From an uncultured bacterium (GTDB lineage: Bacteria; Actinomycetota; Geothermincolia; Geothermincolales; Geothermincolaceae), in NCBI GenBank assembly GCA_963765625.1, contig CAVXXD010000005.1, positions 191,113 to 255,112 of the forward strand: a stretch of 64,000 nucleotides of DNA, read 5' to 3'. A program made the translations under genes and the position numbers. Of the stretch, positions 2,603 to 30,293 are shown piece by piece. The notes below the pieces were generated by a model. That model saw only the letters and a list, made by a program, of their open reading frames with translations, searched no databases and was not told the DNA's origin. How positions within the stretch are numbered: the stretch's first letter is position 1; every line of letters starts with the position of its first letter.

Positions 2603-4222
2603 TCACTGAATGACTTTCCACGATTTTACCTGGAAGGGTATGGGGAAACCGGCGACCGGCACGGAAGGCCGGCGATAGGTGATGCCGGTGCCCGTCCAGA
2701 GGGACAGGTCCGCGTCGCGCAACATGATCGAGCCCTTGGCGGTGATCTGTCCCAGGATATCCTTGAAGAACTGCAGGGGATAGTCTACCGCATAATCGCT
2801 GCCGTTGTACCCCGAGTAGATGAAGAGGGTATCCATGGGGGACAGGTTCCAGTCGATGCCGCTGCTGAACCTGACCTTGCCCTGGGCGATAACCTGATAC
2901 TCGCAATTCTCCTCCATCCACCAGCCGGAATTTATGGTGACGTCCCCCAGCGCCACGAACACCCCCTTGGTGTTGGCCTTCAGATCCGTACTGTCGATCA
3001 ACAGGTTGCCCTCGCTGAAACATATCCAGCCGTTGAAGAGGGCCTGGGTGGACTCGTTGATCTCTATGGGGTCAGGAGTGGCGGTCCCGCCGTTGGAACT
3101 ATTCCAGTACTGGGCACTGTCGTCGGAGCTGAAATAGTGCTTCTCGGAATACCCGTTATCCTCCGCCCAGACGTCCTGTATCTTGGCCTGGGCGCGGTAC
3201 CAGTCCCAGTCAGGCTCGGGCAGGACGACTTCGGGCACGATGCTGCTGCCCTGATATTCGCTTCTAGTGCCCAGGATGGTCAGGTAGCCGCCGAGCTTTA
3301 TCCCGAATATCGAGATGGGATTGTCGATATCGGCCGTATCCAGGTCACCTCCGGCGATGCAGTTGCCGTCAATGGTTATGTAGGAAGATGCCAGAAGCCA
3401 TGTCTCGGCGTCCAGGTCTATCTCCCCGCCGGCAAAGACACCCTCCCCGAGGGCCTCGAACTGGGCCGAGTCGAAGGAACTGCCCCCGGTCACCCTCACC
3501 GCCGAGCTGGCGGCTATGCCGGAAAACGCCCTCAGGTGGCAGTAATCCCTGGCGTAGACGTTACCGTTGATCTGCAACCCCACGCCGAAGCCCAGGATCA
3601 GTTTTTCATTGAGAAAATCCAGGTTCCTGCCGTAGACGTTGCCGTTGACCTTGAAGTCCGTGTAGCCCAACAAGCCCCCGGAATCGAGGTATATGGTTCC
3701 GGACTCGGAAAAGAGCACGTAATTCAGGGCATCGAAATACTTGTCGGTCCCTGCGAAAGCCACCTTCTCCTCCAGTTTGCGGGTGAAGGTCGTGCCGTCG
3801 TCATTGGTGTAAGTGCCCGTGGAAGTGATCGTCCAGTCCTTGGAGCCGTTGAGGGGATCGCTGTTTTCGATGGTGGCGATGAAGTAAGGGTTGGCGTCGA
3901 GGCGCGGGTCGTCCGGATCCTCGGGGATCGTCTTTCCGGAAACGGGCACCAGTTCCCTGGACAACTCGGCATGAGCCGCCGATATGCCGCTCTCGGCTGC
4001 GTCGAAAGCCTTGCCGGACGCCATGAGGCCCTGGGCGTTCATCAGGGAGTAGAGGGCCATGATCATTGCCGTAGCGCCCAGAACGGCCAGCATGGAGATG
4101 ATAAAGAGCACCATGACCATGGCAAACCCCTCTTCACTCCGCTCAACTGTCCCCGTCCGGCCTTCTCGAGCCGGCGTCCGCGCCTGCGTGATCCTCTTGT
4201 ATCTTCTCATGTAGCCTCTCAT
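2603..4222 (-). CDS. PilX-like minor pilin / pilus-associated protein (PilX_N-type N-terminal TM segment)
   Basis: 539 aa; basic leader then hydrophobic EGFAMVMVLFIISMLAVLGATAMIMA segment typical of the PilX N-terminal domain; last gene of the minor-pilin operon. Confidence 0.55.
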   Translation of the reverse strand: MRGYMRRYKRITQARTPAREGRTGTVERSEEGFAMVMVLFIISMLAVLGATAMIMALYSLMNAQGLMASGKAFDAAESGISAAHAELSRELVPVSGKTIPEDPDDPRLDANPYFIATIENSDPLNGSKDWTITSTGTYTNDDGTTFTRKLEEKVAFAGTDKYFDALNYVLFSESGTIYLDSGGLLGYTDFKVNGNVYGRNLDFLNEKLILGFGVGLQINGNVYARDYCHLRAFSGIAASSAVRVTGGSSFDSAQFEALGEGVFAGGEIDLDAETWLLASSYITIDGNCIAGGDLDTADIDNPISIFGIKLGGYLTILGTRSEYQGSSIVPEVVLPEPDWDWYRAQAKIQDVWAEDNGYSEKHYFSSDDSAQYWNSSNGGTATPDPIEINESTQALFNGWICFSEGNLLIDSTDLKANTKGVFVALGDVTINSGWWMEENCEYQVIAQGKVRFSSGIDWNLSPMDTLFIYSGYNGSDYAVDYPLQFFKDILGQITAKGSIMLRDADLSLWTGTGITYRRPSVPVAGFPIPFQVKSWKVIQ

Positions 4223-4913: not shown

Positions 4914-7724
4914 CTACCATGTCTGCCCGCTCGGGTTACCAGAGGTCAGACTCTTTATCGTCCACCGGTTGGTGTACGGCGTAGACTGACTGTCGATACT
5001 ATTCGTCAAGGTGATGTCGTAGTCGCCCGTGCCGGAGTTCACGTTCCAGTTCGGGCTGAAAGAACCGTGGCTGTTCCAGTTCGCCAGTGTGCTGTCGGGC
5101 ACCGTGTAGAGCAGCACACTGTGGTTGACGCGATCGACGATCGCCACATACTGCCCGGTCATGTCCACCCCGTTGCTGCCGTCAGCTTCTATGTTGATAC
5201 TGGTATTGGAGCCCGTAGTGGAGTCGAGAAAACCCTTGCCCTTGAGCATCATCTTGATGTCACCATAACGTTTGCCCCAGGCTTTGGCGGACGCCGTTTC
5301 GACAGTATAGTAGTAGTTGTTCGCGAAAAGCCAGTAGTAATACCTTATGGTCACCGCGCCGGAGCTGGCGGCAAGAAGTGTCGGTGCGCCATATTGCACC
5401 GTGAAGGTCGACCCCACGTACTCCCCTGGCTCGTAAGGGTCCACGACCCATAGTTTATACAGAGTCCCGCCAACCACACAGGGGACCTGGATGAGATTGA
5501 GTTCTCCCGCCACGGTTGTCGTCGTAATGGCCGCTGCCGCTTCCCCGTCACCTACCCCGATCTCGTAACGCGTCCCGGTGCCGTCGTTCTTCTGGTAGTA
5601 GACCTTGTCCGTAGGCAGGAACCCGGTGCCGGTCACCGCCAGCCCCAGGTCGTAGTAGTTATAGTACCAGCCGGAATTAGCACCGGTTGCAGTGTTCCTG
5701 ATAGTAGTGATCGTCGGCTTGTTGCGCACCAGGTAGGCGTATGTCGTCGTGCTGTCCATAACGGCATCCAGATAGGCCTGCTGGTGTGTCACGGTATTAT
5801 ACAGGTACAGCCAGCACTCGGAAGGCGATACCTGCGCGTTGAACCCGTTAAGGTTGAAGTTCGCCTCAATCAGATCGGAGCTCAGGTACTGGATGTCACC
5901 TGCCGCGACGTACTCCGGCAGCGTGCCTCCCCATTCGTCGATAGGCTCCCAGGTCTCAGGGTCGTATCCCACCGACGGCAAGGGCATGTCCACGATTCCC
6001 GCCGCCCCGAGGTAGACCTTTACCTCGTCCCAGTTATCCTGCACGTCCAGGCTCTTGCCCTCGATGGTCAGGTTGTACGTCTTGTTCTTGAAGCCCCAGT
6101 TGCGCCTGAACCCGCCAAAAGCAGTATAAACACTCGTGTCGTACATACGATAGACGCTCAGCTGCGGCTCCTCCACGTCGACATAGAACGTGGAGATACC
6201 CACCCTGTCCCCGAGTTGCCCGACCCTGTCGTAGTCCCGGCAGTTCCAGACCTCGACGTAGTACCGCTGGTAATTCTTGGTCGTGACGACGCCATCTTCA
6301 TCCACCACGGTCTTCTCGAAGGGGTAGTCCCAGCCTTCAGTCGAACGTCCCCTGAGGTTGAACTGGTCGGTGATGGTGTCGCTGTCCGCGCCGCCCGTGT
6401 AATTATTGCCGCTGACGATGCTGGTCGGGGTGGATTGGATGTCTTCCTTGCTCAGGTAGCGGTCCTGGATCACCCTGGTGCGGTCTACGGTACCGTCGGC
6501 ATTGCACCAGACCAGTTGCATCACCGCATAGCATCGCCGCAGGCGGACGGGGTACGTCGCGCTGCTGTTCCAGGCCAGTATGGGATTGCCCTTGATGGTA
6601 GCCGCGAAACTGCCTACACTTCCGGCGACATCCTGGAAATTACCCTCCGCGGTGACGGGGAAGATCTCCCCGTTGGTCTCGCTGCTCACGGCCTCATCTA
6701 TCACGGGTTCGGGGAACTCCACCACGAATCCCTGGTAGAGTATGGCATAAGCCGATTCCTTGTCGAGCCTCACATCCCATCCCCCCGGCTCGGCGTAGCT
6801 GCCGAAACTCGCCCAGGGCATGGTCTCGAGATTGTTGACGCTCGCAAGGTTGACGGACCCCCACAGAATGCCGTCCTGCACCTCGCTGGTATCCGTCAGG
6901 GTGATCGGGATGTCATCGTGACCCTGCATCGTCAAGCAGGCCGTGCTGCTGGCATCGAACCCGTATCCGGTTATCTTCAAGGGTATGCTGTTGACGTTAT
7001 GCGGCGCGGAGTTGGAAGTGGAGCCCTGCTTGCTCGTATCCCCGCCCTGGCTGATAACCTCGATCGCGGATACGCCCAGGTTGGCCTGGGCCTGGGTCCG
7101 CGTCATGACCGACGTGGTCGAATTGCTCTTCTCCGCTCCGTTGTCATCCATGTAGTAAGCCTTCACCTCGAACTTGATGAGGTTGATGGGCATGTTCGTA
7201 TCGTCACTCGGATCGTCGGTATTGGCGCTGGCGTAGGTGCTGCTCTTGCCTTTTGGCCCCCAGTATCCCCACATGGACGCCAGGGTCATGTCGTCATTGA
7301 GGAAGGCCATGTTGACGGTAATGCGGAATTGGGGATAGGGATCCTGATCGTAATCCTTGACCTCGACTTCGTACTGGTCGTCCCACGAGTTATCGAGGCC
7401 CCTGGACCCGGAGACCGCTTCCCAGTAGAAATCGTCCATATCCGTTTCCCCTACTTCTGAGTTGTAGGGCGTGTAGAACGACCTTGACCAGACGATTTCC
7501 GAGTAGTTGCGCAGGCACACCTCGGCCTTGTTCAGGTCCGCGGCCGTGGAAGATAACCTGATGGAAGTACCAAAGAGCTGCATCAGGGGCAGGGTGACCA
7601 TGGTCAGCACCAGCCCGGCTACGAGCACTTCAACGATGCTGAAGCCTCCCTGGTTGCGCCCAGGCGTCATCGTCTTTCTGAGCATCCTTTTCCAGCGCTT
7701 CATCTGTCTCACCCTTCCACTCAA
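4914..7724 (-). CDS. Giant modular type IV pilin-like protein (class III signal peptide + ~880-aa C-terminal module), putative pilus-tip adhesin
   Basis: 936 aa; basic leader ...GRNQG|FSIVEVLVAGLVL with Gly-1/Phe+1/Glu+5. ORF-track start 7724 is TTG; ATG at 7703 preceded by an AGGGTGAG SD is an alternative. Large Ser/Thr/Asn/Tyr/Trp-rich extracellular portion. Confidence 0.65.
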   Translation of the reverse strand: MSGRVRQMKRWKRMLRKTMTPGRNQGGFSIVEVLVAGLVLTMVTLPLMQLFGTSIRLSSTAADLNKAEVCLRNYSEIVWSRSFYTPYNSEVGETDMDDFYWEAVSGSRGLDNSWDDQYEVEVKDYDQDPYPQFRITVNMAFLNDDMTLASMWGYWGPKGKSSTYASANTDDPSDDTNMPINLIKFEVKAYYMDDNGAEKSNSTTSVMTRTQAQANLGVSAIEVISQGGDTSKQGSTSNSAPHNVNSIPLKITGYGFDASSTACLTMQGHDDIPITLTDTSEVQDGILWGSVNLASVNNLETMPWASFGSYAEPGGWDVRLDKESAYAILYQGFVVEFPEPVIDEAVSSETNGEIFPVTAEGNFQDVAGSVGSFAATIKGNPILAWNSSATYPVRLRRCYAVMQLVWCNADGTVDRTRVIQDRYLSKEDIQSTPTSIVSGNNYTGGADSDTITDQFNLRGRSTEGWDYPFEKTVVDEDGVVTTKNYQRYYVEVWNCRDYDRVGQLGDRVGISTFYVDVEEPQLSVYRMYDTSVYTAFGGFRRNWGFKNKTYNLTIEGKSLDVQDNWDEVKVYLGAAGIVDMPLPSVGYDPETWEPIDEWGGTLPEYVAAGDIQYLSSDLIEANFNLNGFNAQVSPSECWLYLYNTVTHQQAYLDAVMDSTTTYAYLVRNKPTITTIRNTATGANSGWYYNYYDLGLAVTGTGFLPTDKVYYQKNDGTGTRYEIGVGDGEAAAAITTTTVAGELNLIQVPCVVGGTLYKLWVVDPYEPGEYVGSTFTVQYGAPTLLAASSGAVTIRYYYWLFANNYYYTVETASAKAWGKRYGDIKMMLKGKGFLDSTTGSNTSINIEADGSNGVDMTGQYVAIVDRVNHSVLLYTVPDSTLANWNSHGSFSPNWNVNSGTGDYDITLTNSIDSQSTPYTNRWTIKSLTSGNPSGQTW

Positions 7725-8269: not shown

Positions 8270-8520
8270 TACCTATATTTTACCATTTCGCCTGATAGGC
8301 CTTTTGTGGGTAGACTTGCCTGAAAAGCCGCTCCGTTTCCGCTCTAACCAGTACTTTTATCGTCACGATCACTCTGTTTCCTTTAGCTCAATCAATATAT
8401 AGCAATGCAAAAGCTGTGCAAAGTATGTTACGTTTATGTTACGCTCAAATTATAATACCTGTTCAATGGCGGTTTTATCAATATTCTTACACTATCCCTA
8501 TTATATTAGTATATTATTTC
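8270..8520 (-). promoter_or_regulatory. AT-rich intergenic island, presumed promoter region of minor-pilin operon
   Basis: ~250 bp at ~30% GC inside a ~65% GC genome, directly upstream (minus strand) of the FimT-like gene; no convincing -35/-10 pair resolved by eye. Confidence 0.3.
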
Positions 8521-11842: not shown

Positions 11843-12559
11843 TCAGATCCTTCTCAGCTGGCCTTTCTGCAGTTCGTAGGTCTCGTCTCCGCACATCAGC
11901 ACGAGAACGGTGCTGGACTTGAACTCTACGATCTTATAATTGTTGCCGAAGCTCACGCCCGCTTTTATGTTCTCGTAGCTCGTGTCCCCGACCTTTATCT
12001 TGGCGTATTTGATGCCGCGGCTCTCGAAGATGTCCTGAACCAGTATGACCTGCCCGCTGCTGACCTCCGCCGTCACCGGTACGGTCGAAGAAGGAGTGGT
12101 GGTTGGAGCTGTTGATGAACCTGCCGTTCCCTCGTCCAGATCACGGTTCAGTATCAAGCCTAGTTTTGAGTCCAGTGTCCCTTCGTTATCGACCAGCGCC
12201 CCCACATCACCCATCAGCGGCATGAAGGGGTCGTTCAACACCCACACGTCCGAATAAGGTATCTCTCCCGGATAGGACGACTCGACCAGCTGGATGTTGA
12301 AGTGCTGTTCGATCGTCCGGGATACTATGGCATCCGACTCCAGCGCTCCGGCATTCTGGCCGGGCGCTAAAGACTGCGCGAGCGACCTGTCGATCGTCGT
12401 GTTGTCATTGTCGCCGAAGCTGGTTGAAAGGAACAGGAGTGACGCTATCAGAGCAACGGCAAGACTGCCGAACAGCCTTATCCTTCTGTTGGCCTCGACC
12501 TCCATGGCTTCCTGCTTCTTTCTATTCGCGCTGTTTTCGGTTCTTTTCATCATATCCAC
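11843..12559 (-). CDS. Membrane-anchored hypothetical protein, possible PilP-like pilus assembly component
   Basis: 238 aa; one N-terminal TM helix, Ser/Thr/Pro linker, C-terminal beta-rich ~80 aa; directly follows pilM-pilN-pilO in what looks like the same operon. Confidence 0.35.
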   Translation of the reverse strand: MDMMKRTENSANRKKQEAMEVEANRRIRLFGSLAVALIASLLFLSTSFGDNDNTTIDRSLAQSLAPGQNAGALESDAIVSRTIEQHFNIQLVESSYPGEIPYSDVWVLNDPFMPLMGDVGALVDNEGTLDSKLGLILNRDLDEGTAGSSTAPTTTPSSTVPVTAEVSSGQVILVQDIFESRGIKYAKIKVGDTSYENIKAGVSFGNNYKIVEFKSSTVLVLMCGDETYELQKGQLRRI

Positions 12560-12574
12560 CTCGGCTATACGATT

Positions 12575-13138
12575 CTACTTGGTCAAGAGCAGCTCGACGC
12601 CGTTGGGCGTTGTAAAGAATATCTTGAAAGTAACGGTTATTTGCAGGTAGGGCAAGGTATCTTCGCCGGCCGAGACGGCCAGGATCACTGGCTTTATGGA
12701 GCGAGGCAGTTTTTCAACCTGGTTGAAAAACTCAACCATGTTGAAATAACGGCCGTTTAAAACCGTTGCGATCGAGGATACGTAGAACTTTCCCTGCTGT
12801 ACAGGCATTTCCGGCGTAAGGCTGAAGAAATCCAGCCCTGCTTTTTCCGCGGCGTAGTCCAGCTGCTGGACGACGTCGGCCAGGTCGACGTTCTCGGGTA
12901 TCTTGCCGTCCAGGGCGCTGATCTGGCGCGTGAACTGCTCAGGGTCCTTGTTGTATGCTTCCAGCTGGGCTTGACGGCCCTGTTCTTTGCTGTATTCGGA
13001 TTTTACGCTGCTGATCTGTCCATCAAGGTCGCTGACTTTGTTCTTTTCAGGCAATACGATAAACGCCACTCCGATCGCCAGAAGTATTATGGCTACGACT
13101 ACCACGATAATCAGGTAAAAGCGCGGATTGATTTTCAT
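12575..13138 (-). CDS. pilO: Type IV pilus assembly protein PilO
   Basis: 187 aa; N-terminal TM + coiled coil + PilO-like C-terminal domain; position after pilN. Confidence 0.7.
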   Translation of the reverse strand: MKINPRFYLIIVVVVAIILLAIGVAFIVLPEKNKVSDLDGQISSVKSEYSKEQGRQAQLEAYNKDPEQFTRQISALDGKIPENVDLADVVQQLDYAAEKAGLDFFSLTPEMPVQQGKFYVSSIATVLNGRYFNMVEFFNQVEKLPRSIKPVILAVSAGEDTLPYLQITVTFKIFFTTPNGVELLLTK

Positions 13139-13974
13139 TTCCCACTACCTCCGGTGGTGGTTCCCGTTTCTTCGGCATTCTTAGACTTGAGGTCCCATGG
13201 CGCCTTTTCAGTATTCCAGTAACCATCGATCTCGAAGGCGATGGCCCAGTCCTGATAAGATTCATCCACAACGGTCTGGGTGCCGTTTTCGTCCACTTCT
13301 TCGTGCTGCACCGTTATGGTCACCGGCTCCTGGGTGGAACTCACTATCCACAGGTTGCTCCATTCCTCCATGTTTTGCAGCCTGACATAGAATTCAGCTA
13401 CCTTTGGCTGGCCACGGAAATAGTAGTAGTAGGGATAGGCGTCAAGAAAGCCGTGAGCCTTGAAGTCGCTGGCCCGGGGCAGCCATGTTTGAATGCAGAG
13501 CCAGGCCGGAGCAGCGTATCCAGTCATGGTTATCGAGGGTGACGAACTAGTCTCGGCTCCTCCCTCGAGTGGCGTCGCATCGATATTCAGGCTGGTCAGC
13601 CAGATGGCCGGTGCGCGCGAATTGCTCGCGGTAGTCAAACCTTCAGGCACATAAAGTGCCAGGTCGTTCAGCATGCTCGCCCAGCCGACCCTGCCGACGT
13701 TACAGGCTGCGTAAAGATCCTGGATGCTCTGGAGTTCGGCAGCCTGCTCTTCATAGACCTGGAGCGGCTCCTCGACCTTTTTCTGAAGTTCCTGCAACTC
13801 GGCTTCCTGGTCCTTGAGATCTGCCTCCTTACTGGTAACCTGGTTATGGAAGAAGAGCCAGCCCACTCCCACCAGTACCACTACCGCCAGCAGCGATATA
13901 ACGATCCAGGGAATGAGGTTTACCCTTTCGGCCTTTCCCTTTATCTCGGGAGGAAGCAGGTTTATGCGCGTCAT
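13135..13974 (-). CDS. pilN: Type IV pilus assembly protein PilN (with C-terminal extension)
   Basis: 279 aa; conserved N-terminal INLLPPE motif, TM helix, coiled coil. Confidence 0.75.
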   Translation of the reverse strand: MTRINLLPPEIKGKAERVNLIPWIVISLLAVVVLVGVGWLFFHNQVTSKEADLKDQEAELQELQKKVEEPLQVYEEQAAELQSIQDLYAACNVGRVGWASMLNDLALYVPEGLTTASNSRAPAIWLTSLNIDATPLEGGAETSSSPSITMTGYAAPAWLCIQTWLPRASDFKAHGFLDAYPYYYYFRGQPKVAEFYVRLQNMEEWSNLWIVSSTQEPVTITVQHEEVDENGTQTVVDESYQDWAIAFEIDGYWNTEKAPWDLKSKNAEETGTTTGGSGK

Positions 13975-15044
13975 TATTCCATCACCTCTCTGAGGGCAAG
14001 GCCGATACAGACGGCAACTGAAGGTTCGATGTCGGCCAGCTCTTCAGCCGCGAAGGGAAGCTTGCCCATCTGGAGATTCTGGAAAGGTTTCCCCATCTCC
14101 ACCGGAATCCGCAGCCCGCGGTTCATCTCCTGAGAGAGGTTGAGGGTTTTTGACCCGCTTCCGGAGAGAATGACCTTCGAGAGGTTTCTCTCCTGGGTCT
14201 GCGCGACATAGTAATCGATGGATCGACGGACTTCACCGACGAAATTGAAGATCTCCTGCTGGAGTATCTTGTTCGCCTCTTCGTGGACCTGTTTGCCGGT
14301 CCTGATCTCTTCCGCTTCTCCTGCATCCATGTTCATGCGGTCCATGATGATGGAGGTAAAGTCGTTCCCTCCCCGCAGCAGGAAGCGCGCGAACCTGGGT
14401 ATCCGGTCCTTGAGAATGACTATATTGGTGATACCGGCTCCGATATTGACGATGCAGACGCTCTCTTCCTCCCCCGCCTCTTCCATCAGCTGCACCTCTC
14501 TCTTGATGAGGGAGCGGGGCAGGGCGAACGCCTTGAGGTCGATCGCCACCGGCACCAGGCCGGCGCTCTGCAGGACCCCGACGAAGCTCTGGATCATGTC
14601 CCGGTGGGCTGCCACCAGAAGCACCGTGAGCATCCGTTCTTCTTCGGCCGTCATGAACTCCTCGATGACTTCGAAATCAAGGACGGCATCCTCGGTGGGG
14701 ATGGGTATGAATTCCTGCACCTGGAAGCGGAGAGCCGAATCCAGCTCTTCCCTCTCCATGTACGGCAGTTCGATGGGGCGGACTATCACCTTCTGGTTGG
14801 CGATTCCCAGGATGACCTTTTTCCCTTTCAAGCCGGACCGGGTCCAGAGCTCCTTGAGCAGGTTGGAAAGGGACTCCGGGTCCTCGATCTCGCCGTCACG
14901 GATCACGCCTTCAGGGAGTTGGATGAACCCCAGGTTCGATAGAATGGCATCTCCCCGGTCGATCTCGACCTCCGAGACCTTGACCGAGCTATTGCTGATG
15001 TCCAGGCCAATTGCAGTCGTCTTCTTCTTTGGACTCATCATCAT
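13974..15044 (-). CDS. pilM: Type IV pilus assembly ATPase-like protein PilM (actin/FtsA fold)
   Basis: 356 aa; IGLDISNSSVKV N-terminus and actin-like ATPase fold motifs. Confidence 0.85.
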   Translation of the reverse strand: MMMSPKKKTTAIGLDISNSSVKVSEVEIDRGDAILSNLGFIQLPEGVIRDGEIEDPESLSNLLKELWTRSGLKGKKVILGIANQKVIVRPIELPYMEREELDSALRFQVQEFIPIPTEDAVLDFEVIEEFMTAEEERMLTVLLVAAHRDMIQSFVGVLQSAGLVPVAIDLKAFALPRSLIKREVQLMEEAGEEESVCIVNIGAGITNIVILKDRIPRFARFLLRGGNDFTSIIMDRMNMDAGEAEEIRTGKQVHEEANKILQQEIFNFVGEVRRSIDYYVAQTQERNLSKVILSGSGSKTLNLSQEMNRGLRIPVEMGKPFQNLQMGKLPFAAEELADIEPSVAVCIGLALREVME

Positions 15045-15062
15045 CCCCCGCTATCGGCGTCC

Positions 15063-15242
15063 TCACGAACCCTTGGTGAGGTATTTATTGACATCGCTCT
15101 CTTTGATCCGGTAATTCTTGCCTACACGAATGGCCGGGATCTGGCCTCCCTTTACCAGGCGGTAGACCGTCATATTGGATACCCTTAGTATATCGGCCAC
15201 TTCGTTCACCGTCAGCAGTTTGTTGCTAATCTTTTCTCTCAT
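15063..15242 (-). CDS. Small helix-turn-helix DNA-binding protein, excisionase/MerR-like HTH_17 family (not in ORF track)
   Basis: 59 aa translated by hand: MREKISNKLLTVNEVADILRVSNMTVYRLVKGGQIPAIRVGKNYRIKESDVNKYLTKGS; GGAG SD 7 nt upstream; stop 18 nt before pilM. Confidence 0.7.
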   Translation of the reverse strand: MREKISNKLLTVNEVADILRVSNMTVYRLVKGGQIPAIRVGKNYRIKESDVNKYLTKGS

Positions 15243-15450
15243 CTCTCAACTCCACGTTCTTGTCGATGTGAGCTGGTACAATGCCCGATCTATTTTACCT
15301 TCGCCTCGTATGAAAAACCCGAACCGATCACATGCCGTAATGAGAGAATCTTAAACTAACACGAATCTATTCAAATTGTCAATACTATCTTTCGTCAACT
15401 ACAGTTACATCCTTTAGCACAATTTACATTCTTCAACATTACTATACACT

Positions 15451-15479
15451 ATTATAATTTAATATCAGTAGTTGTCAAT
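15451..15479 (-). promoter_or_regulatory. Sigma70-type promoter (TTGACA-17-TATAAT) for the HTH-pilMNO operon
   Basis: Minus-strand -35 TTGACA (plus coords 15474-15479), 17-nt spacer, perfect TATAAT (15451-15456), in an AT-rich island. Confidence 0.5.
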
Positions 15480-15490
15480 AGTTTATTTTA

Positions 15491-16270
15491 CTACCGCATC
15501 ATTGAGCGATATAGCTCGATTATCCACCCCCCCACAAATATCGATATCCAACTTCCTGCGATCAGATACGGTCCAAATGGTATCTTCGACTTCCACTCCT
15601 TTTTCCCTGTAAGAATTGGTGGGATTGACGCAATGCTTCCCAGAAGGAAACCGAGAAAGAGCGCGGGGATGACGTCCCAGCCCAGCACAACGCCTGAAAA
15701 TGCCATCAACTTGGCGTCACCCATGCCCATCCCTTTCGGATACAGCAGAGAGATCAGGCCCAGCGGCCCCCCGCCGATGAGCAGGCCGGCCCCCTGTTCC
15801 ACCAGGACCTGGCTGTCCCAACGGACCAGGGCGATCACTCCCACGTAGACCACGGCGATCAGAAGGGAAGGAAGGATGATGGCATTGGGGATTATCAGCT
15901 CCTTCAGGTCGATCATGCCGACCATCAGGGTCACCGTGACGAAAAAGAGATAGAGCGGCAGGAAGGCGTCCCATCCGAACCCGAAATGGGCGAAGACCGC
16001 CACGTACATGGCCGCGTTGGTGAACTCGACCAGGAGGTATACGGGGGAGATGCGGCAACCGCAACGGCGGCAGCGTCCGCGCAGTAACAGCCAGCTCAGC
16101 AGGGGTATATTGTCGTACCATTCGATGGGCGTGTCGCAACCCGGGCAGAACGACCTCGGCTTGACCACGGACAGGCCGCGAGGAACCCGGTAGATCACGA
16201 CATTGGCGAAACTGCCGATGGCCGAGCCCAGCAGGAACAGAACCACTGAAAAAAAGATAGCAGGTAACAT
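15491..16270 (-). CDS. pilD: Prepilin peptidase PilD (A24 family) with tetracysteine zinc motif
   Basis: CPGC...CRRCGC motif and 8 TM core. The ORF-track start 16348 (TTG) lies inside the pilA1 terminator hairpin, so the start is set at ATG 16270 (MLPAIFF...). TATAAT sits 9 nt upstream of that ATG, suggesting a leaderless mRNA. Confidence 0.85.
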   Translation of the reverse strand: MLPAIFFSVVLFLLGSAIGSFANVVIYRVPRGLSVVKPRSFCPGCDTPIEWYDNIPLLSWLLLRGRCRRCGCRISPVYLLVEFTNAAMYVAVFAHFGFGWDAFLPLYLFFVTVTLMVGMIDLKELIIPNAIILPSLLIAVVYVGVIALVRWDSQVLVEQGAGLLIGGGPLGLISLLYPKGMGMGDAKLMAFSGVVLGWDVIPALFLGFLLGSIASIPPILTGKKEWKSKIPFGPYLIAGSWISIFVGGWIIELYRSMMR

Positions 16271-16310
16271 GTTGGCCCAATTATAAGGAGGGCAGGTGAC
16301 AAAATCCCTG

Positions 16311-16338
16311 GCATCGAAAAGGGCCCCTGGGTGGGGCC
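16311..16338 (-). terminator. Rho-independent terminator downstream of pilA copy 1
   Basis: Minus-strand GGGCCCC-ACCCA-GGGGCCC hairpin followed by TTTTCG. Confidence 0.5.
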
Positions 16339-16374
16339 CTTTCTTCAATAACCGTTCTTCACACTCATCAGCTC

Positions 16375-16698
16375 TTAATCGCCATAAGTGTGTCCCAGAT
16401 CACAGACCGCGTACGGCGGCGTGCCGGTTACGACTTCGTAGGTGCCCCCAGCGGGGCACTCCGGCCAGTCCTTGAGGAGCTCGGGCACGTAGTCGGCGGA
16501 ATCCAGGGAGTAATCGTCAGCCCCCGCCCGATACTGTATGACGCAGCCGTCGATGGTCCTAAGGTTGTCCTTGCAGGCGCCTTCCTCCGCATTGCTCTGC
16601 GCGCTGAAGAACACCGGCACGGCAATGGCTACCAGTATACCGATGATAAGAATAACGACCATCAACTCGATGAGGGTGAACCCTTCCTGCTTTTTCAT
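16375..16698 (-). CDS. pilA: Type IV major pilin PilA, copy 1
   Basis: 107 aa; MKKQEG|FTLIELMVVILIIGILVAIAVP canonical prepilin signal; Cys pairs in C-terminal globular domain; strong GGAGGTG SD. Confidence 0.88.
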   Translation of the reverse strand: MKKQEGFTLIELMVVILIIGILVAIAVPVFFSAQSNAEEGACKDNLRTIDGCVIQYRAGADDYSLDSADYVPELLKDWPECPAGGTYEVVTGTPPYAVCDLGHTYGD

Positions 16699-16726
16699 AT
16701 CTCTTTCACCTCCTCCCTCTAGCCTT

Positions 16727-16755
16727 CAAACAGAAAAGGCCCCTAAATGGGGCCC
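16727..16755 (-). terminator. Rho-independent terminator downstream of pilA copy 2
   Basis: Minus-strand GGGCCCC-ATTTA-GGGGCC hairpin followed by TTTTCTGTTT. Confidence 0.5.
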
Positions 16756-16790
16756 TTCCTTCAATAACCGTTCTTCACACTCATCAGCTC

Positions 16791-17114
16791 TTAATCGCCA
16801 TAAGTGTGTCCCAGATCACAGACCGCGTACGGCGGAGTGCCGGTAACGATCTCATAGGTGCCGCCAGCGGGGCACTCCGGCCAGTCCTTGAGGAGCTCGG
16901 GCACGTAGTCACCGGAATCCAGTGAGTAATCGTCAGCCCCGGCACGGTACTGCATTACGCAGCCGTCGATGGTCCTCAGGTTGTCCTTGCAGGCGCCTTC
17001 CTCCGCATTGCTCTGCGCGCTGAAGAACACCGGCACGGCAATGGCTACCAGGATACCGATGATAAGAATAACGACCATCAACTCGATGAGGGTGAACCCT
17101 TCCTGCTTTTTCAT
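16791..17114 (-). CDS. pilA: Type IV major pilin PilA, copy 2
   Basis: 107 aa from ATG 17114 with the same GGAGGTG SD; the ORF-track upstream extension is ignored; 3 aa substitutions relative to copy 1 (V/M, A/G, V/I). Confidence 0.88.
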   Translation of the reverse strand: MKKQEGFTLIELMVVILIIGILVAIAVPVFFSAQSNAEEGACKDNLRTIDGCVMQYRAGADDYSLDSGDYVPELLKDWPECPAGGTYEIVTGTPPYAVCDLGHTYGD

Positions 17115-17233
17115 ATCTCTTTCACCTCCTCCCGTCACAATCTCTTTCCTGTTCACTTTCTTTAATAACAATATCGGGCTTGCCAGGAAATACCTTTAGG
17201 GTATTTTTCGTCTTCTGGTGAGACTAGACCCAT

Positions 17234-18460
17234 CTAGCTGCCGCCGGCGAACTGGCCGATGAGGGAGAAAATGGGCATGTAAAGGGAGATGACGATGGTT
17301 CCGACAACCCCTCCCAGGAGGACCATCATCAGGGGCTCCATCAGGGAGGTCAGAGACTCCACCGCTGCTTCGATCTCGGAGTCATAGAAGTCGGCGACCT
17401 TGTTGAGCATGGTATCCAACGCCCCGGTCTCTTCGCCGATGGCCAGCATCTGGGTGACCATGGGTGGGAACAGCGGGTTAGTTGCCAGCGGCTGTGCGAT
17501 GGACTCTCCCTCCTTGACGCCCATGCGAACGCTTTCGACGGCATCCGCGACCAGCCTGTTCCCGACGGTCTCGGAGGTGATCTCGAGGGCTTGCAGGATG
17601 GGTACGCCGGAAGAGACCAGGGTTCCCAGGGTACGGGAGAACCGGGACATGGCCATCTTGTGGAAGAGCGTGCCGAACACCGGCATTTTCAGCTTGAAAG
17701 CGTCCACTTTCCTTCTGCCGCTATCGGTTTTCTTCCATCTCCTGAAGAAATAGATGCTGAAGCCTACCACGAAGTAGAAGACCAGGCCGGCTAGGCTCTT
17801 GATGAAGTTGCTCAGGTTGATGATGAACTTGGTCAGTGCCGGCAGCGTCGCCCCCATCTGCTCGAACATGTTCACGAAGGTGGGGACCACCACTACCAGC
17901 ATGACTACCAGCAGATGCATGGAGATACCCAGCATGGCGATGGGGTAGGTCATGGCTGATTTTATTTTACGCCTGATGTTGTCTTCGTTCTCCAGGGTCA
18001 GGGCTACACGCAGCAGGACGTCGTCGAGCACGCCGCCGATCTCGCCGGCCTTGACCATGCTGGTATAAAGCTGTTTGAAGGTGTCGGGGTGCTTGCTCAT
18101 GGCCTCGGACAGGGAACGGCCCATCTCCACCTCGTGCTGGACATCCTGCACGACGCTGGCCAGTACCGGGCTGTCTGTCTGCTCGGCCAGAATGGCCAGG
18201 CATTTTACCAGCGGCAGGCCGGCATTGATCATGGTCGCGAACTGGCGGGTGAATACCGTTACGTCCTTGCCCTTGACCTTGGGCTTGAAGATGTGGAGTT
18301 CCTTCTTGCCCATGGCTGCCTTTTCCTTGTCTACCCCGATGACGAAGTAGCCCATCTGGCGCAGCCGCTGCGATACGTTGGCTTCGCTGTCCGCTTCCAG
18401 GGTGCCGGTTATGATCTTTCCCTGGCGGTCTCTCACCCTATAGGAATAAGTATCTGCCAT
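17234..18460 (-). CDS. pilC: Type IV pilus inner-membrane platform protein PilC (GspF family)
   Basis: 408 aa; two GspF-like repeats and TM segments. Confidence 0.9.
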   Translation of the reverse strand: MADTYSYRVRDRQGKIITGTLEADSEANVSQRLRQMGYFVIGVDKEKAAMGKKELHIFKPKVKGKDVTVFTRQFATMINAGLPLVKCLAILAEQTDSPVLASVVQDVQHEVEMGRSLSEAMSKHPDTFKQLYTSMVKAGEIGGVLDDVLLRVALTLENEDNIRRKIKSAMTYPIAMLGISMHLLVVMLVVVVPTFVNMFEQMGATLPALTKFIINLSNFIKSLAGLVFYFVVGFSIYFFRRWKKTDSGRRKVDAFKLKMPVFGTLFHKMAMSRFSRTLGTLVSSGVPILQALEITSETVGNRLVADAVESVRMGVKEGESIAQPLATNPLFPPMVTQMLAIGEETGALDTMLNKVADFYDSEIEAAVESLTSLMEPLMMVLLGGVVGTIVISLYMPIFSLIGQFAGGS

Positions 18461-18532
18461 GCGCCTTTACATCCCCTTTCAAACACATTTTAGATAGGTA
18501 ATCGGCCCTGGCGCAAAGGAACTTTAGTTAAC

Positions 18533-18561
18533 ATCTAAACCAATAATATCACTTTTGTCAA
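18533..18561 (-). promoter_or_regulatory. Putative promoter/operator upstream of pilC sharing the TAAACTATTGACAA..TGATATTA motif with the pilM-operon promoter
   Basis: Minus-strand TTGACA (plus 18556-18561) with a weak -10 (TTAGAT) 17 nt downstream; 14/14 identity to the motif at 15472-15485. Confidence 0.3.
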
Positions 18562-18614
18562 TAGTTTACAAAATCAACAGAATTTTCAGGGCCGCAACGG
18601 TTTCTTTGTTTATT

Positions 18615-19358
18615 CTAGTCACCTGCTTGATCTTCCTCCCCGGAAACAGGTTCAGCAATGGTTTTCCGCAATTCACTGATCCGGTCCTCCAGAAGATTGA
18701 TCTTGGTGACAACGAACTTCCTGGCGGCCTGGTCCAGCCCTTCACGCATCAAGGCCAAACGGTAGTAGTCCAGTTGCTCCCGCAGGGCAGCAATGGCTCC
18801 GGCCGGGTCTCCCAGGGCGTTGCTGGTCACGGCGATCCCGGCGGTCAGGTACATCATGTCCACGAATTCCAGCCGCTTGCCGATGGCTTCCCGGTAGGCC
18901 TCCCGGGCTTGTTGGTATTTTTCCTGCCTCATGTAGAGGTCGGCCAGGCTGGCGTAAAGATCGCCGTTGTCCGGGTTGTTGGCTATCCCCTCCAGGGTGA
19001 AATCTATGGCCTCCTGCTCGCTGCCGGCGTAGAAGATGGTCGCTCCGCCCACGTAATACGCGTCGATATAGTGGGGGTCGAGGTAGCTTATCAGCTTATA
19101 ATACGGGATCAGCTCGGATTCAGAGCTGAGGCTTTCATAATAGCCGTGATGGAGGCTTTCCGTCCTGATCCAGAGGACGTAGGCCAGGAACTGCCTGACA
19201 CCACCGAGAAAGTCCAGGTAGTTGACGCTGGCGGAAGCCCCCTCGCCGGCCCGGCTTTCCTCGCCGCCCAGGTCCGACCGCCCCAAAGCCACCTGTGCGA
19301 AAGAGCCCGCCAGGATAAGAGCGGCCAGGATGACGCAGAGAACAGCCCTCTTCCTCAA
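18615..19358 (-). CDS. Secreted TPR-repeat protein (PilG-like accessory partner of the ABC transporter?)
   Basis: 247 aa; signal peptide (MRKRAVLCVILAALILAGSFAQVALG), TPR-like Tyr/Ala-rich helical repeats; start overlaps the permease stop. Confidence 0.55.
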   Translation of the reverse strand: MRKRAVLCVILAALILAGSFAQVALGRSDLGGEESRAGEGASASVNYLDFLGGVRQFLAYVLWIRTESLHHGYYESLSSESELIPYYKLISYLDPHYIDAYYVGGATIFYAGSEQEAIDFTLEGIANNPDNGDLYASLADLYMRQEKYQQAREAYREAIGKRLEFVDMMYLTAGIAVTSNALGDPAGAIAALREQLDYYRLALMREGLDQAARKFVVTKINLLEDRISELRKTIAEPVSGEEDQAGD

Positions 19359-20140
19359 ATCTCCTTCCTCCGGAATATCTCTCCACCGATGAGGATGAAG
19401 ACGGTGGAGAAGACGGCTGCCAGGATGGCCAGCATGAGCATGTCCAGGGCGGTGACGGGGTAGGTCCTCTCCCCGTGCGCCACCGTCTCGTTTATGTTGA
19501 AGAAGCTCAGGTTGGGCAGGATGTAATAGAAGAGCCCGGCTATCCCCCGCAGCAGGAAGTTGTGGGCACCGTCGGCCATTATGTCGTGCAGGAACTCACC
19601 TTTCAGGTGGCAGACCACGTAGAAGGCGGTGGTCCCGAAGAAGGAGACCACCGGGCTGGCGAAGGTGGTCAGCATGAGGGTGAAGGCCGCCAGTATGGCC
19701 GACTCCATGTATATGGCCAGCACTGCTTTGTACAGCCCGGGGTTGAAGACGTTGAACTTGAGATAGATAAAAGCCACCGCCACCAGCCAGGAGAAGGCCA
19801 GGGTGACCGCCATCACCAGCATCACCCCGGTATAACGGCCAGTGTAATACGTCCAGCGGGAGATCGGCTTGGAGAGGATGTAGTAGACGGCCCGCCGCTC
19901 GACTTCCACGGAGATGGCCATTGCCGCCAGGACCACGGTCAGCACCAGGGACATCAGGGAGATGAGGCCGAGGAAGCCGTCGCGCATGAGGTCTATCTGC
20001 ACGCCCACCCGCGCGCTGGGCAGGACCGGCACCATCAGGACCAGTATCAGGGTAATGGCCACCAGCGCATAATAGAGCTTGCGGTGTACGGCATCTTCGA
20101 TGACGCTGCGCACGATGGCGGTGAAAGCCCGGAGCCTCAT
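19355..20140 (-). CDS. ABC-2 type transporter permease (PilI-like)
   Basis: 262 aa from ATG 20140 (MRLRAFTAIV...), ATGA overlap with the ATPase stop; 6 TM; the ORF-track 364-aa N-terminal extension is rejected. Confidence 0.7.
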   Translation of the reverse strand: MRLRAFTAIVRSVIEDAVHRKLYYALVAITLILVLMVPVLPSARVGVQIDLMRDGFLGLISLMSLVLTVVLAAMAISVEVERRAVYYILSKPISRWTYYTGRYTGVMLVMAVTLAFSWLVAVAFIYLKFNVFNPGLYKAVLAIYMESAILAAFTLMLTTFASPVVSFFGTTAFYVVCHLKGEFLHDIMADGAHNFLLRGIAGLFYYILPNLSFFNINETVAHGERTYPVTALDMLMLAILAAVFSTVFILIGGEIFRRKEI

Positions 20141-21066
20141 TCCCTTTCCCTCCTGCTGCTGACGTGCGCCAGAAAATACTCCTCCAGGGTGATCCTTCGA
20201 GGCTTGACCTCGAGGATGCGCGCCGGCTTCGTCGACAGTTCCCGCAGGAATAGATCGAGATTGGGGCGGGGCACGATGAACCCGGGAGCGCCTTCCGTCT
20301 TCCTGGCCCCCAGCAGCTCGAGCTTTTCTGCCTCCAGTTCTTCTTCTCCATCCAGGGTGACCTGATAAGTCTCCTCCCGGCCCAGCAGGTCGGATATGGA
20401 GCCCTGGGCCACCTCCCTGCCCCGGTCGATGATGCAGAGGTGGTCGCATATCTCTTCCACTTCGGAGAGCTGGTGGGAGCTTAAAAGAATGGTGGTCCCC
20501 TGCTCACTGGTATCCTGCAGGATCTTCCGGACCTCCATCTTTCCCAGGGGATCAAGCCCGGTGGAGGGTTCATCCAGGATCAGCAGCGAGGGCTGGTTTA
20601 ACAGCGCCTGGGCGATGCCCAGCCTCTGCAGCATACCTTTGGAGAAACGGCTGAGTGCCAGGTCGCGCTCCCTGGAAAGCCCTACTAGAGACAGTAGGTG
20701 GGAGACACGCACGTCAATCTCGGGATCCGGCATGTACATCAGCCTGCCCAGGTAGCGCAGGATACGGTTGGGCGTCAGGTAATAATAGAAATACGGCTGT
20801 TCCGGCAGGAACCCCATGCGCTGCCGCGCCCGGGGCTCGCGCCAGTCGTCCCCGAAGATGCGCACCTCCCCTTCGTCTGGAACGAGGAAGTCCATGATTA
20901 TCTTGAGGGTGGTGGTTTTACCCGCTCCGTTGGGGCCCAGCAAGCCCATCACCTTTCCGGCAGGCAGAGTGAAGCTCAGCCCGTTCAAGGCCTGACGGCG
21001 CTCCTTGTGAAAACCTATGCGATAGCTCTTGCCCAGGCTCTTGACGTCAAGTGCCACATCGGACAT
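20137..21066 (-). CDS. ABC transporter ATP-binding protein (PilH-like)
   Basis: 309 aa; Walker A GPNGAGKTT, ABC signature, Walker B ILDEP. Confidence 0.88.
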   Translation of the reverse strand: MSDVALDVKSLGKSYRIGFHKERRQALNGLSFTLPAGKVMGLLGPNGAGKTTTLKIIMDFLVPDEGEVRIFGDDWREPRARQRMGFLPEQPYFYYYLTPNRILRYLGRLMYMPDPEIDVRVSHLLSLVGLSRERDLALSRFSKGMLQRLGIAQALLNQPSLLILDEPSTGLDPLGKMEVRKILQDTSEQGTTILLSSHQLSEVEEICDHLCIIDRGREVAQGSISDLLGREETYQVTLDGEEELEAEKLELLGARKTEGAPGFIVPRPNLDLFLRELSTKPARILEVKPRRITLEEYFLAHVSSRRERE

Positions 21067-24884: not shown

Positions 24885-25418
24885 TTACTTGTCGAGGGTC
24901 TTGAGGATGTCGTACAGCAGGCCAAGGAGGACCTTCTTGACGTCTTCCTTTTCCTTGGCATCGCAGGCGATGATCTGGATCTCTCCATCCATGTTCAGTT
25001 CCTTGCGGATCTTCTCGATGATGGAGTCCTTGTCGTTCTCGGGAATGCTCCTGGCCCCGATCACGTATGGGGTATCGGACAGTGTGGCAAAGAACTCCAG
25101 GATGCGCCGGGCTTCCGCGAAGGTCTCGTCCCTGCTGGCATCGACCATGATGATGTAACCCAGCATGCCTTCGGAGAGGATCTGCCACATGAAATCGAAA
25201 CGCTCCTGTCCTGGAGTTCCGAAGAGGTACAGGACGATGTCCTTGGATATGGTGATGCGGCCGAAGTCCATGGCCACGGTGGTTTCCTGTTTTACGGAAC
25301 GGGTATGGTCGGATATCGACCTCTCAGTGGAGACTATGGCGATCTCCGAGATGGTCTTGATGAATGTCGTCTTACCGGCACTGAAGGGACCGGTCACAAC
25401 GATCTTGAATGAACGCAA
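24885..25418 (-). CDS. Small Ras-like GTPase of the roadblock-associated MglA/CvnD (conservon GTPase) family
   Basis: 177 aa; G1 GPFSAGKTTF, TVAMDFGRI, G3 LYLFGTPGQERF; close match to Streptomyces CvnD-type GTP-binding proteins. Confidence 0.8.
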   Translation of the reverse strand: MRSFKIVVTGPFSAGKTTFIKTISEIAIVSTERSISDHTRSVKQETTVAMDFGRITISKDIVLYLFGTPGQERFDFMWQILSEGMLGYIIMVDASRDETFAEARRILEFFATLSDTPYVIGARSIPENDKDSIIEKIRKELNMDGEIQIIACDAKEKEDVKKVLLGLLYDILKTLDK

Positions 25419-25430
25419 TTACCCTACTCC

Positions 25431-29828: not shown

Positions 29829-29868
29829 ACTGCATCATCTTCCGGTAAGGGTTGGTATCCACATTTCT

Positions 29869-30264: not shown

Positions 30265-30293
30265 ACAGCTACCTCCTGCCTATAACGCCTTGA

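Follow-up and report, generated by a model that had tools for sequence, protein, structure and literature searches.

We analysed a 64,000-nucleotide stretch of DNA (the window) from an uncultured bacterium of the Geothermincolaceae (Actinomycetota; contig CAVXXD010000005.1 of assembly GCA_963765625.1), in which a small gene for a helix-turn-helix (HTH) protein was located between the type IV pilus genes pilD and pilM. The open reading frame (ORF) of this HTH gene occupied positions 15063..15242 of the minus strand, started with ATG and had 59 codons; its computed translation, MREKISNKLLTVNEVADILRVSNMTVYRLVKGGQIPAIRVGKNYRIKESDVNKYLTKGS, was identical to the one made by hand in the initial annotation of this DNA. 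Since an in-frame stop was present one codon 5' of the ATG, this was the only possible start. The initial annotation had also given the gene its own GGAG Shine-Dalgarno sequence and the leading position in a pilMNO operon, 18 nt upstream of pilM. All of this was borne out: direct reading of the sequence placed the GGAG at 15250..15253 of the minus strand, 7 nt before the ATG, the 18 nt separated the HTH stop codon from the first ATG of pilM (15044), and the HTH gene was the first cistron before pilM, pilN and pilO. We assigned to it a 59-aa protein with the winged-helix domain of the excisionase family (HTH_17), on the strength of the ORF, the family matches, selection and synteny. The GC content of the ORF (47.8% vs 61.1% for the window) was below the level expected of chromosomal genes in this DNA, which may be due to its Lys/Asn/Ile-rich composition.

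The immediate neighbours, all on the minus strand, were pilus genes. Upstream was pilD encoding the prepilin peptidase (15491..16348; PF06750 and PF01478). Downstream were pilM (13974..15044; PF11104 at 2.3e-57 and TIGR01175 at 221 bits), a pilN-like gene of 279 aa named by its position and without a Pfam match (13135-13974), pilO (12575-13138), in a gene order that was conserved in every locus examined, and a conserved gene for a 238-aa protein (11843..12559) that had no Pfam match and also came after pilO in all the other lineages (L001-L007, L052-L055 and L058). Along the minus strand, three Roadblock/LC7 genes, a gene for a 1465-aa DUF4388 protein, an MglA-like GTPase gene, aroE, pilB and pilT were followed by an ATP-binding cassette (ABC) transporter, a tetratricopeptide repeat (TPR) protein, pilC, two pilin-like genes, pilD and the HTH gene, and then, after pilM, the pilN-like gene, pilO and the 238-aa unknown, by aroC, aroK, aroB, aroQ, the minor-pilin operon and pepP.

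Pairwise comparisons of a 46-codon core among 44 orthologues gave 5999, 2049 and 22965 differences at codon positions 1, 2 and 3, respectively, and 21026 synonymous vs 4569 non-synonymous differences. The core NKLLTVNEVAxILRVSNMTVYRLVKxxQIPAIRVGKNYRIKExDV was nearly invariant in the orthologues, which were 56-71 aa long, varied in their tails and started with ATG, GTG or TTG. Judged by this pattern of substitutions, the HTH ORF is a genuine gene under purifying selection. It had been described as unannotated, which was right for the ORF track of the initial annotation but not for public records, where an identical protein was found at NCBI, ENA and Logan. The homologues numbered 605, the top 120 with identities of 75-100%. 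They were named 'excisionase family DNA binding protein' or 'helix-turn-helix domain-containing protein' and their names pointed to uncultured deep-branching Actinomycetota (Candidatus Geothermincola, Solincola and Anoxymicrobiaceae). Since there was no curated NCBIfam model for the pilM-linked subfamily, its public annotation was generic.

The HTH gene was tightly associated with pilM. A PilM-anchored scan of one genome per GTDB species yielded 38 loci, and a homologue of the HTH gene was located directly upstream of pilM in all of them (one locus was cut by an assembly gap). The initial annotation had proposed looking for a small HTH ORF upstream of pilM in related genomes, and such an ORF was present not only in the 38 species but also in four more distant pil-linked lineages with 67-75% identity (L050, L051-L055, L058/59 and L060). 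The same linkage was observed in contigs from metagenomes and metagenome-assembled genomes (MAGs) that were reached from the HTH side. In these distant lineages, the proteins closest to the window HTH protein were P0265 (75% identity; L050, with the order HTH-pilM-pilN-pilO) and P0262 (72%; L051, pilD-HTH-pilM). They were followed by P0397 and P0487, referred to here as lineage 2 (69%; L052-L055, with pilB-T-C, pilins, pilD, HTH, pilMNO, an unknown gene, pepP, efp and nusB), by P0524 (in a 67% cluster; L058/L059, pilD-HTH-pilMNO-aroCKBQ) and by P0302 (67%; L060, pilD-HTH-pilM). The L060 contig (positions 1-1703) belonged to an unknown taxon and had a GC content of 40.7%, so the association may reach beyond the high-GC Actinomycetota. 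The distance between the HTH gene and pilM varied from -4 to +190 nt overall. It was -4 to +24 nt in most loci of groups 1 and 2 and 48-89 nt in most loci of group 3, the groups being three subclades of the orthologous loci. The HTH stop codon overlapped the pilM start by 4 nt in L002, L007 and L015 and abutted it in L052 and L054.

In a search of 1.84 billion cluster representatives, 10352 relatives were found at E<=1e-3 and 269 at E<=1e-10; many of the 269 were 60-100 aa long with 56-75% identity. A search with P0262 gave 3466 related sequences at E<=0.001, and all three members whose context was checked (P0262, P0397 and P0487) were pil-linked. The pilM-linked proteins are part of a larger actinobacterial family, that of small winged-helix proteins with high conservation. 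The idea that the pil-linked members are monophyletic was considered and not retained: a non-pil relative with 74% identity was closer to the window protein than the pil-linked lineage 2 with 69%, and 59 residues were too few to resolve the branching. Separately, the representative search was headed by proteins with up to eight tandem HTH_17 repeats (P0241-P0243 and others; for example, 479 aa with 8 matched stretches).

The HTH protein was conserved far better than its neighbours. Between the window and lineage 2 the identity was 69% for the HTH protein, 34-37% for PilM, 37-40% for PilD, 28% for PilN and 25-29% for PilO. In the first clade, the HTH proteins were 70-97% identical vs 56-85% for PilM. 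By these comparisons, the HTH protein is the most conserved protein of the pilus cluster.

The HTH_17/excisionase fold named in the initial annotation was confirmed by the hidden Markov model search that it had suggested: PF12728 matched with E=2.3e-18 and 66.6 bits (cut-off 27) over profile positions 1-50 of 51, and the domain covered residues 9-58. The TIGR01764 model 'excise' (excisionase family DNA-binding protein) gave 68.2 bits vs a cut-off of 28.8. The AlphaFold2 model had a predicted local distance difference test (pLDDT) score of 88.2 and consisted of strands (E) and helices (H) in the order E9-11, H12-19, H23-31, E38-40, E43-47 and H48-57. The HTH protein is a winged-helix protein of the excisionase/MerR-like superfamily. 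The MADS defence protein MAD1 was rejected as an identity for it: the PADLOC mad1 profile gave a domain-level match (E=2.5e-11), NF047737 scored 47.7 bits vs 80, and the neighbours were pil genes rather than methylation or defence genes.

By both sequence and fold, the closest entries in the PDB were the structures of Streptomyces BldC on DNA (6AMA and 6AMK; 38-40% identity), which superposed with a root-mean-square deviation of 0.9-1.6 Å and a template modelling (TM) score of 0.83-0.90 normalised to the BldC chain (Foldseek). The next-ranked Foldseek matches were the Xis of mycobacteriophage Pukovnik, RacA and RdfS. BldC, a MerR-like protein of 68 residues that lacks dimerisation and effector domains, forms head-to-tail multimers on 9-bp direct repeats; it binds such repeats at the WhiG-dependent whiI promoter and has a broad regulon (PMC5859096). 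We mapped the residues named in the BldC paper onto the HTH protein through a HMMER alignment, a comparison of positions and not a structural test. Of the BldC interface residues, six were identical in the HTH protein (L11=L9, E16=E14, R22=R20, V23=V21, I40=I38 and G44=G41) and two were conservatively replaced (F21->L19 and L43->V40). The guanine-contacting arginine of BldC (YpG contact, R30) was kept as R28, and all the interface positions together with R28 were invariant in alignment A4 of the orthologues. The phosphate and wing contacts T27, K33 and R48 were retained as well. The tandem HTH_17 proteins mentioned above are, as an aside, covalent arrays reminiscent of BldC-type multimers.

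The region in front of the HTH gene was unusual in composition and contained several conserved elements. The 248 nt between pilD and the HTH gene had a GC content of 34.7% vs 61.1% in the window. At 15451..15478 of the minus strand, 13 nt after the pilD stop codon and at a position that was conserved in orthologous loci, there was a predicted sigma-70-type promoter (P1) with the structure TTGACA-16-TATAAT and a 12/12 hexamer match. The initial annotation had placed a near-consensus TTGACA-17-TATAAT promoter here; the promoter was there and its hexamers were perfect, but the spacer was 16 nt. The -10 of P1 ended 208 nt before the HTH start codon, and further conserved promoter-like blocks were located in between.

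These blocks were compared in an anchored alignment of 36 non-redundant loci from the three subclades. All 36 loci contained the pattern GCTAAAG-N12-GTTG(A/G)CGA-N7-TATTGAC with invariant spacing. In the window, its first two parts formed a flagellar/WhiG (sigma-28)-type promoter-like block at 15389..15418 of the minus strand, namely GCTAAAG at 15418-15412, a 12-nt spacer and GTTGACGAAAG at 15399-15389 with the -10-like GACGAAAG. The third part led into another putative promoter recognised by comparison of orthologous loci (P2, 15353..15384, minus strand), with TATTGACAA at 15384-15376, a spacer of 18 nt and a weak -10-like TAGTTT at 15358-15353. The TATTGACAA that ends the block was followed by a -10-like hexamer in groups 1 and 3, namely TAGTTT in the window and CATAAT, 17-18 nt further on, in group 3. 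The sigma-70-type promoter of groups 1 and 2, TATTGACAA-N16/17-TAnAAT, which is P1 in the window, had its -35 at a constant distance of 60 nt upstream of the GCTAAAG block.

The first two parts of the conserved block resembled the flagellar/WhiG consensus. In Rubrobacter and Actinoplanes, such a consensus (-35 TAAA and -10 GCCGATAA) directs the transcription of pil genes (PMC8325347). The pattern CTAAA-N15-17-[GC][ACG]CGA[TA].. occurred 4 times in the window vs 0.29 expected, a statistical support that is post hoc because the pattern was refined after the sites had been seen. All four sites were on the minus strand and each was located just upstream of a pil unit: pilC (CTAAA at 18527, site 18499-18527, -10-like GCCGATTA), the pilin gene (CTAAA at 17199, 17171-17199, CCCGATAT), HTH-pilMNO (CTAAA at 15417, 15389-15417, GACGAAAG) and the minor-pilin operon (CTAAA at 8386, 8357-8386, GACGATAA). 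With a looser pattern that allowed any base at the second -10 position, 42 sites were found on the pil strand of related loci and none on the other strand. Under the published criterion of -35 TAAA and -10 GCCGATAA with <=2 mismatches in total (PMC8325347), the three sites other than that of HTH-pilMNO passed with 1-2 mismatches. Orthologous HTH blocks passed too, with 2 mismatches in group 2 (GGCGATGA) and 1 mismatch in lineage 2 (GCCGATAC), where CTAAAG-N16-GCCGATAC was present ahead of the HTH gene. Neither a sigma nor an anti-sigma gene was present among the scanned ORFs of the window; flagellar clusters are reported for most genomes of these basal classes (PMC10746217). An independent observation concerned the pilin ORF at 16791-17171, whose mechanically assigned TTG start coincided with the end of the promoter-like block. 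Its N-methylation motif began at residue 20, and the true start is probably further downstream than the listed TTG.

The leader from P2 to the HTH start codon (15243..15346, minus strand, about 105 nt) folded with a z-score of -0.33 relative to shuffled sequences, and Rfam gave no match within 14000-17500 at E<=1 and two chance-level hits elsewhere. In group-3 loci (L027-L040 and L045), a 9-bp hairpin, GTTAAGATAG...CTGTCTTAAC, was found about 35-75 nt after the TATTGACAA block, directly after the CATAAT -10 (alignment A3, columns 18-42). It showed modest compensatory changes, in 3 of 9 pairs, and was absent from the leader of the window. A riboswitch-like leader was unsupported since there was no Rfam match, the leader folded no better than shuffled sequences and the covariation of the hairpin was modest.

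The initial annotation had also pointed to a shared motif, TAAACTATTGACAA, as a possible binding site. Exactly two copies of this 14-mer were present in the 64 kb vs 0.08 expected, both on the minus strand: one at 15472..15485, which formed the extended -35 of P1 and was kept in the closest relatives (L008-L010), and the other before pilC (18568-18555). The idea held in so far as both copies were exact, but the pilC copy was kept only in the closest relatives, as TAAACTAGTTGACAA. Moreover, the deepest-conserved upstream block was not this motif but GCTAAAG-N12-GTTG(A/G)CGA-N7-TATTGAC, which reads at least partly as a sigma promoter rather than an operator. The control region of pilC (18499..18578, minus strand) combined GTTGA at 18578-18574, TAAACTATTGACAA at 18568-18555 with a -10-like TTAGAT, and CTAAAG-N16-GCCGATTA at 18527-18499.

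The conserved block also contained signals beyond those of a promoter. A GTTG was conserved within the sigma-28-like spacer (0.9-1.4 bits per position), outside the search pattern and 9 nt ahead of the one in the second block. The self-similarity of the block peaked at lags 9 and 16. The GTTG at +10 and +19, together with a further TTG at +36, were candidate repeats. A related arrangement, GTTGA-N11-ATTGACA with TTGA 16 nt apart, recurred in the pilC promoter of the window (18578-18555), in the pilC promoters and the HTH P1 of group 2 and in the C-D part of the block everywhere. The sequence ATTGACAA occurred 3 times in 64 kb, each time in a pil promoter, out of a total of 13 TTGACA. We suggest that (G/A)TTGA repeats, each with a TpG step as read by the BldC arginine, are the best candidate binding sites, and that TAAACTATTGACAA belongs to this set. 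Two simpler views of the conserved block were rejected. It was not a pure operator, as the two-block pattern also preceded three other pil units (those of pilC, the pilin gene and the minor pilins) and matched the flagellar/WhiG consensus. Nor was it a pure sigma-28 promoter, given the conserved GTTG in the spacer and the recurrence of GTTGA-N11-ATTGACA at sigma-70-type pil promoters without the CGA core. A different arrangement was observed in Solincola-like pilC promoters (L005, L007, L011-L016, L024 and L026; about 1.7-1.85 kb upstream of the HTH anchor). Here the well-conserved element TAAAGGAAT-N11/12-AACGATAT with a variable GC-rich spacer was followed by a sigma-70-type module with GTTGA repeats, an order reversed relative to the pilC region of the window.

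From the fold, the synteny and the conserved upstream DNA, we propose that the HTH protein is a transcription regulator that acts at pil promoters including its own, a proposal that we regard as about evenly balanced against all others together. It would be made as the first cistron of an HTH-pilM-pilN-pilO-unknown operon, which is apparently transcribed from sigma-70-type and flagellar/WhiG-type promoters in tandem. Since the HTH protein has no dimerisation or effector domain, it would bind in the BldC-like manner, with multimers arranged head to tail along short direct repeats of AT-rich promoter DNA. The most likely targets upstream of its own gene would be the repeated (G/A)TTGA(C) elements, namely the TATTGACAA of P1, the pair GTTG-N5-GTTGACGA, which shares sequence with the sigma-28/WhiG-type promoter, and the TATTGACAA at P2; a further likely target would be GTTGA-N11-ATTGACAA before pilC. 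In this way the protein could feed back on the operon for the pilus alignment platform and would probably co-regulate pilC. Autorepression would be the simplest guess on the sign of this control because the putative sites overlap a -10/spacer and two -35 boxes.

A number of observations weighed against this proposal. The DNA targets, the multimeric mode, the direction of regulation and the sigma factor used were all deduced rather than observed. The conserved upstream blocks could be explained largely as promoter elements (the -35 TTGACA and the sigma-28-type -35/-10), with no operator strictly required, and the TTGA spacings of 9 and 16 nt did not form a regular array. The recognition helix was invariant, and thus there was no co-variation between protein and DNA to exploit. 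With regard to the promoters, the published criterion was not enriched in the window (8 hits vs 7.1 expected), and the TAAA..GACGAAAG of the HTH gene itself failed it with 3 mismatches to GCCGATAA. With regard to the protein, four DNA-contact residues of BldC were changed (K26M, W31L, H46N and R47Y) and the wing was one residue shorter. Since these contacts were replaced, the AATTxxxx(C) specificity of BldC is not transferable and the DNA specificity must differ. The NCBIfam model of BldC, NF033787, was not passed by the HTH protein (28.5 bits vs a cut-off of 77), nor by the pil-linked relatives P0262, P0265, P0302, P0487 and P0524 (24-31 bits). By analogy, the HTH protein very likely works like BldC, yet it is outside the BldC family as curated. 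Close relatives were also found in non-pilus contexts. P0388, in a 74% cluster, was encoded before a gene for a 730-800-aa DUF5719-like protein (L047-L049, HTH at 5715-5924 or 6001-6210), and P0516, in a 64% cluster, was encoded after proC in an Acidimicrobiales MAG (L056, 7001-7195) with an RsiG-family gene 5 kb upstream. Because of such relatives, fold and family alone do not specify a function in the pilus. Finally, conservation of this degree would be unusual for a local regulator and would fit extra partners or a wider regulon equally well.

The last points led to the main rival explanation, in which the HTH protein acts, like BldC, as a pleiotropic, nucleoid-associated or global regulator, is merely co-transcribed with pilMNO and has its main targets elsewhere, such as a WhiG/FliA-type regulon, motility or c-di-GMP genes. 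We consider it unlikely, but it is a real contender. Besides the conservation far above that of the pilus proteins and the very similar members outside pilus loci, it would account for the size of the wider family with its thousands of representatives. It would also agree with the breadth of the BldC regulon (PMC5859096) and with Mlut_14660 of Micrococcus luteus, an HTH_17 protein that resisted deletion and for which a role in more than one process was suggested (PMC8467076). However, the place directly before pilM was strictly kept even where the rest of the cluster was rearranged, and the pilC promoter had TTGA-type elements in common with that of the HTH gene. The 64 kb covered by the analysis would be too short to show a wider regulon.

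It was less probable still that the HTH protein is a DNA-binding accessory of the pilus machine, kept in fixed proportion to PilM by translational coupling, for example a tether or hand-over factor for DNA at the cytoplasmic platform in pilus-dependent DNA uptake, or a contact of PilM. Competence has been tied to an HTH_17 protein in M. luteus (PMC8467076). The linkage was specifically to pilM and not to the pilin or ATPase genes, stop and start codons overlapped or abutted in several lineages, and the HTH protein was more conserved than the proteins of the machine. On the other hand, the coupling was not conserved since the gap between the two genes ranged from -4 to +190 nt and was 48-89 nt in most group-3 loci. 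Outside the 50-residue winged-helix core, nothing was conserved that could serve as a PilM-binding surface, and the tails were variable. We know of no type IV pilus component of such a kind, and small regulators are often encoded by the leading gene of an operon that they control themselves.

A recombination directionality factor (RDF), whether left behind by a prophage or integrative element or acting as the controller of an invertible phase-variable pilus promoter, was effectively refuted and seems extremely improbable. It was suggested by the best family names ('excisionase' in TIGR01764, and the PHROG excisionase families), by the Pukovnik Xis among the top structural matches and by a relative with 56% identity on an actinophage-like contig. 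Opposed to it was the single chromosomal synteny in 38 species and the other lineages, which a mobile element would not keep. No integrase or recombinase was found among the annotated neighbours (1.4 to 62 kb of the window), which were pilus, shikimate, translation, secretion and repair genes, and no tRNA was found in the 64 kb. Flanking inverted repeats around the promoter region were not noticed, although no systematic search for them was made. A search of 2.9 million viral contigs gave a single weak match; this was the relative with 56% identity, a 125-aa protein on a contig without pil genes, and a phage origin was rejected. With no integrase or tRNA nearby and core chromosomal genes all around, the HTH gene is not a mobile-element excisionase, in line with the view of the initial annotation that it was not an obvious one. 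Finally, a chance open frame without a product, which the length of 59 aa and an equal-length ORF overlapping on the opposite strand (15175..15354, plus strand) might suggest, was refuted by the comparative data, that is, by the codon-position pattern and synonymous excess, a protein nearly invariant across lineages with diverged DNA, the strong HTH_17 match, the Shine-Dalgarno sequence at a proper distance from the ATG and the calls of gene finders in public assemblies.

The remainder of the window was core chromosome, with ruvAB, yebC, queA-tgt, yajC-secDF, relA, dtd, hisS, aspS, alaS, mltG and hydrogenase genes. The pilus cluster (1443-24988) was located between aroE and aroC-aroK-aroB-aroQ-(minor pilins)-pepP, within the conserved actinobacterial backbone alaS-mltG-aroE...pepP-efp-nusB, and in other lineages (L052-L055 and L058) pilMNO was located beside aroCKBQ or pepP-efp-nusB. 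Directly upstream of aroE-pilB (24885-31104, minus strand), the MglA-like small GTPase, the 1465-aa DUF4388/PATAN-type protein with its long acidic and proline-rich repeats and the three Roadblock/LC7 (MglB-like) genes resembled a polarity/motility-type module; the GTPase and the giant protein recurred in L002, L003 and L005. Genes for an ABC ATPase, an ABC-2 permease and a TPR protein were located between pilT and pilC both in the window (18615-21066, minus strand) and in Ca. Solincola sediminis (L005, 3906-6330). Large or conserved ORFs without a Pfam match were also found at 4914-7724 (936 aa) and 2603-4222 (539 aa), both downstream of a GspH-like minor pilin, and at 41220-44267 (1015 aa).

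To our knowledge, the type IV pili of Actinomycetota have been little studied, and the only control described for them was by WhiG-RsiG-c-di-GMP in Rubrobacter and by FliA-type sigmas in Actinoplanes. The literature that we searched, with incomplete coverage, contained no account of a small HTH gene before pilM in Actinomycetota. Thus, small BldC/Xis-like winged-helix proteins were known as such, and the new element would be their deeply conserved and previously undescribed association with pilM, as judged from the genomes compared. Since the HTH gene was always found before pilM and encoded the most conserved protein of the cluster across deep lineages, it readily suggests itself as a candidate core regulator of actinobacterial type IV pili that has so far gone undescribed. 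The system would be compact, with 59 residues and a 250-nt control region of fixed block spacing, and there are grounds for annotators to drop the name 'excisionase' for this subfamily. The link to BldC, if real, would bear on the evolution of the Streptomyces developmental regulators. Going further, one could imagine that a BldC-like winged-helix protein has been built into the type IV pilus module of actinobacteria since ancient times, acting with a WhiG/FliA-type sigma at pil promoters, and that Streptomyces BldC descended from or parallels such a pilus-linked regulator; we hold this to be quite doubtful. If it were true, the history of BldC would mirror that of the WhiG-RsiG-c-di-GMP switch, co-opted from pilus control to sporulation. 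The HTH gene would then be the missing DNA-binding component of the ancestral pilus circuit, and a need to touch DNA, other copies of itself and RNA polymerase or a sigma factor all at once would explain why its product is twice as conserved as the pilus proteins.

Several known systems could be compared with the HTH gene. Classical MerR regulators had the same N-terminal winged-helix fold, but the 59-aa protein ended just after the winged HTH, with neither a dimerisation helix nor a sensor domain, and it scored below the threshold of PF00376 (MerR; 18.1 vs 28.2 bits). Excisionases and RDFs such as Pukovnik Xis (4J2N) and RdfS (8DGL) had the HTH_17/TIGR01764 domain and the fold in common with it, whereas the HTH gene had no partner recombinase, no mobile element and, although att repeats were not searched for explicitly, no att-like surroundings, and it kept its chromosomal synteny across classes.

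Among regulators of this fold, the experimentally studied case that comes closest to a link with pili or competence is Mlut_14660, an analogy drawn from family and context and not from sequence comparison. This HTH_17 protein of M. luteus is encoded beside a CpaB/CpaE-like operon, and point mutations in it altered comEA/EC promoter activity and transformation (PMC8467076). Both are small actinobacterial HTH_17 'excisionase family' proteins adjoining pilus-assembly-type genes, and both genes have a long 5' untranslated region. In contrast to the HTH gene, Mlut_14660 is divergent from Tad/Flp-type genes and not co-transcribed with a type IVa pilM; DNA binding is unproven there as well.

With regard to the control of pil genes by WhiG-RsiG-c-di-GMP in Rubrobacter and by FliA-type sigmas in Actinoplanes (PMC8325347), the text and supplement of that work did not mention a small HTH gene in the pil cluster, and the promoters of the window, unlike those, were predicted from sequence. 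The likeness was that pil units were preceded by promoters of the TAAA/GCCGATAA type there and by promoter-like blocks of this pattern here, more weakly so at HTH-pilMNO. Finally, BldC is a stand-alone developmental gene and not a member of a pilus operon, but like the HTH protein it is an actinobacterial, small, single-domain MerR-like winged-helix protein with neither a coiled coil nor an effector domain. BldC acts at the WhiG-dependent whiI, and a WhiG/flagellar-type promoter-like block precedes the HTH gene of the window.

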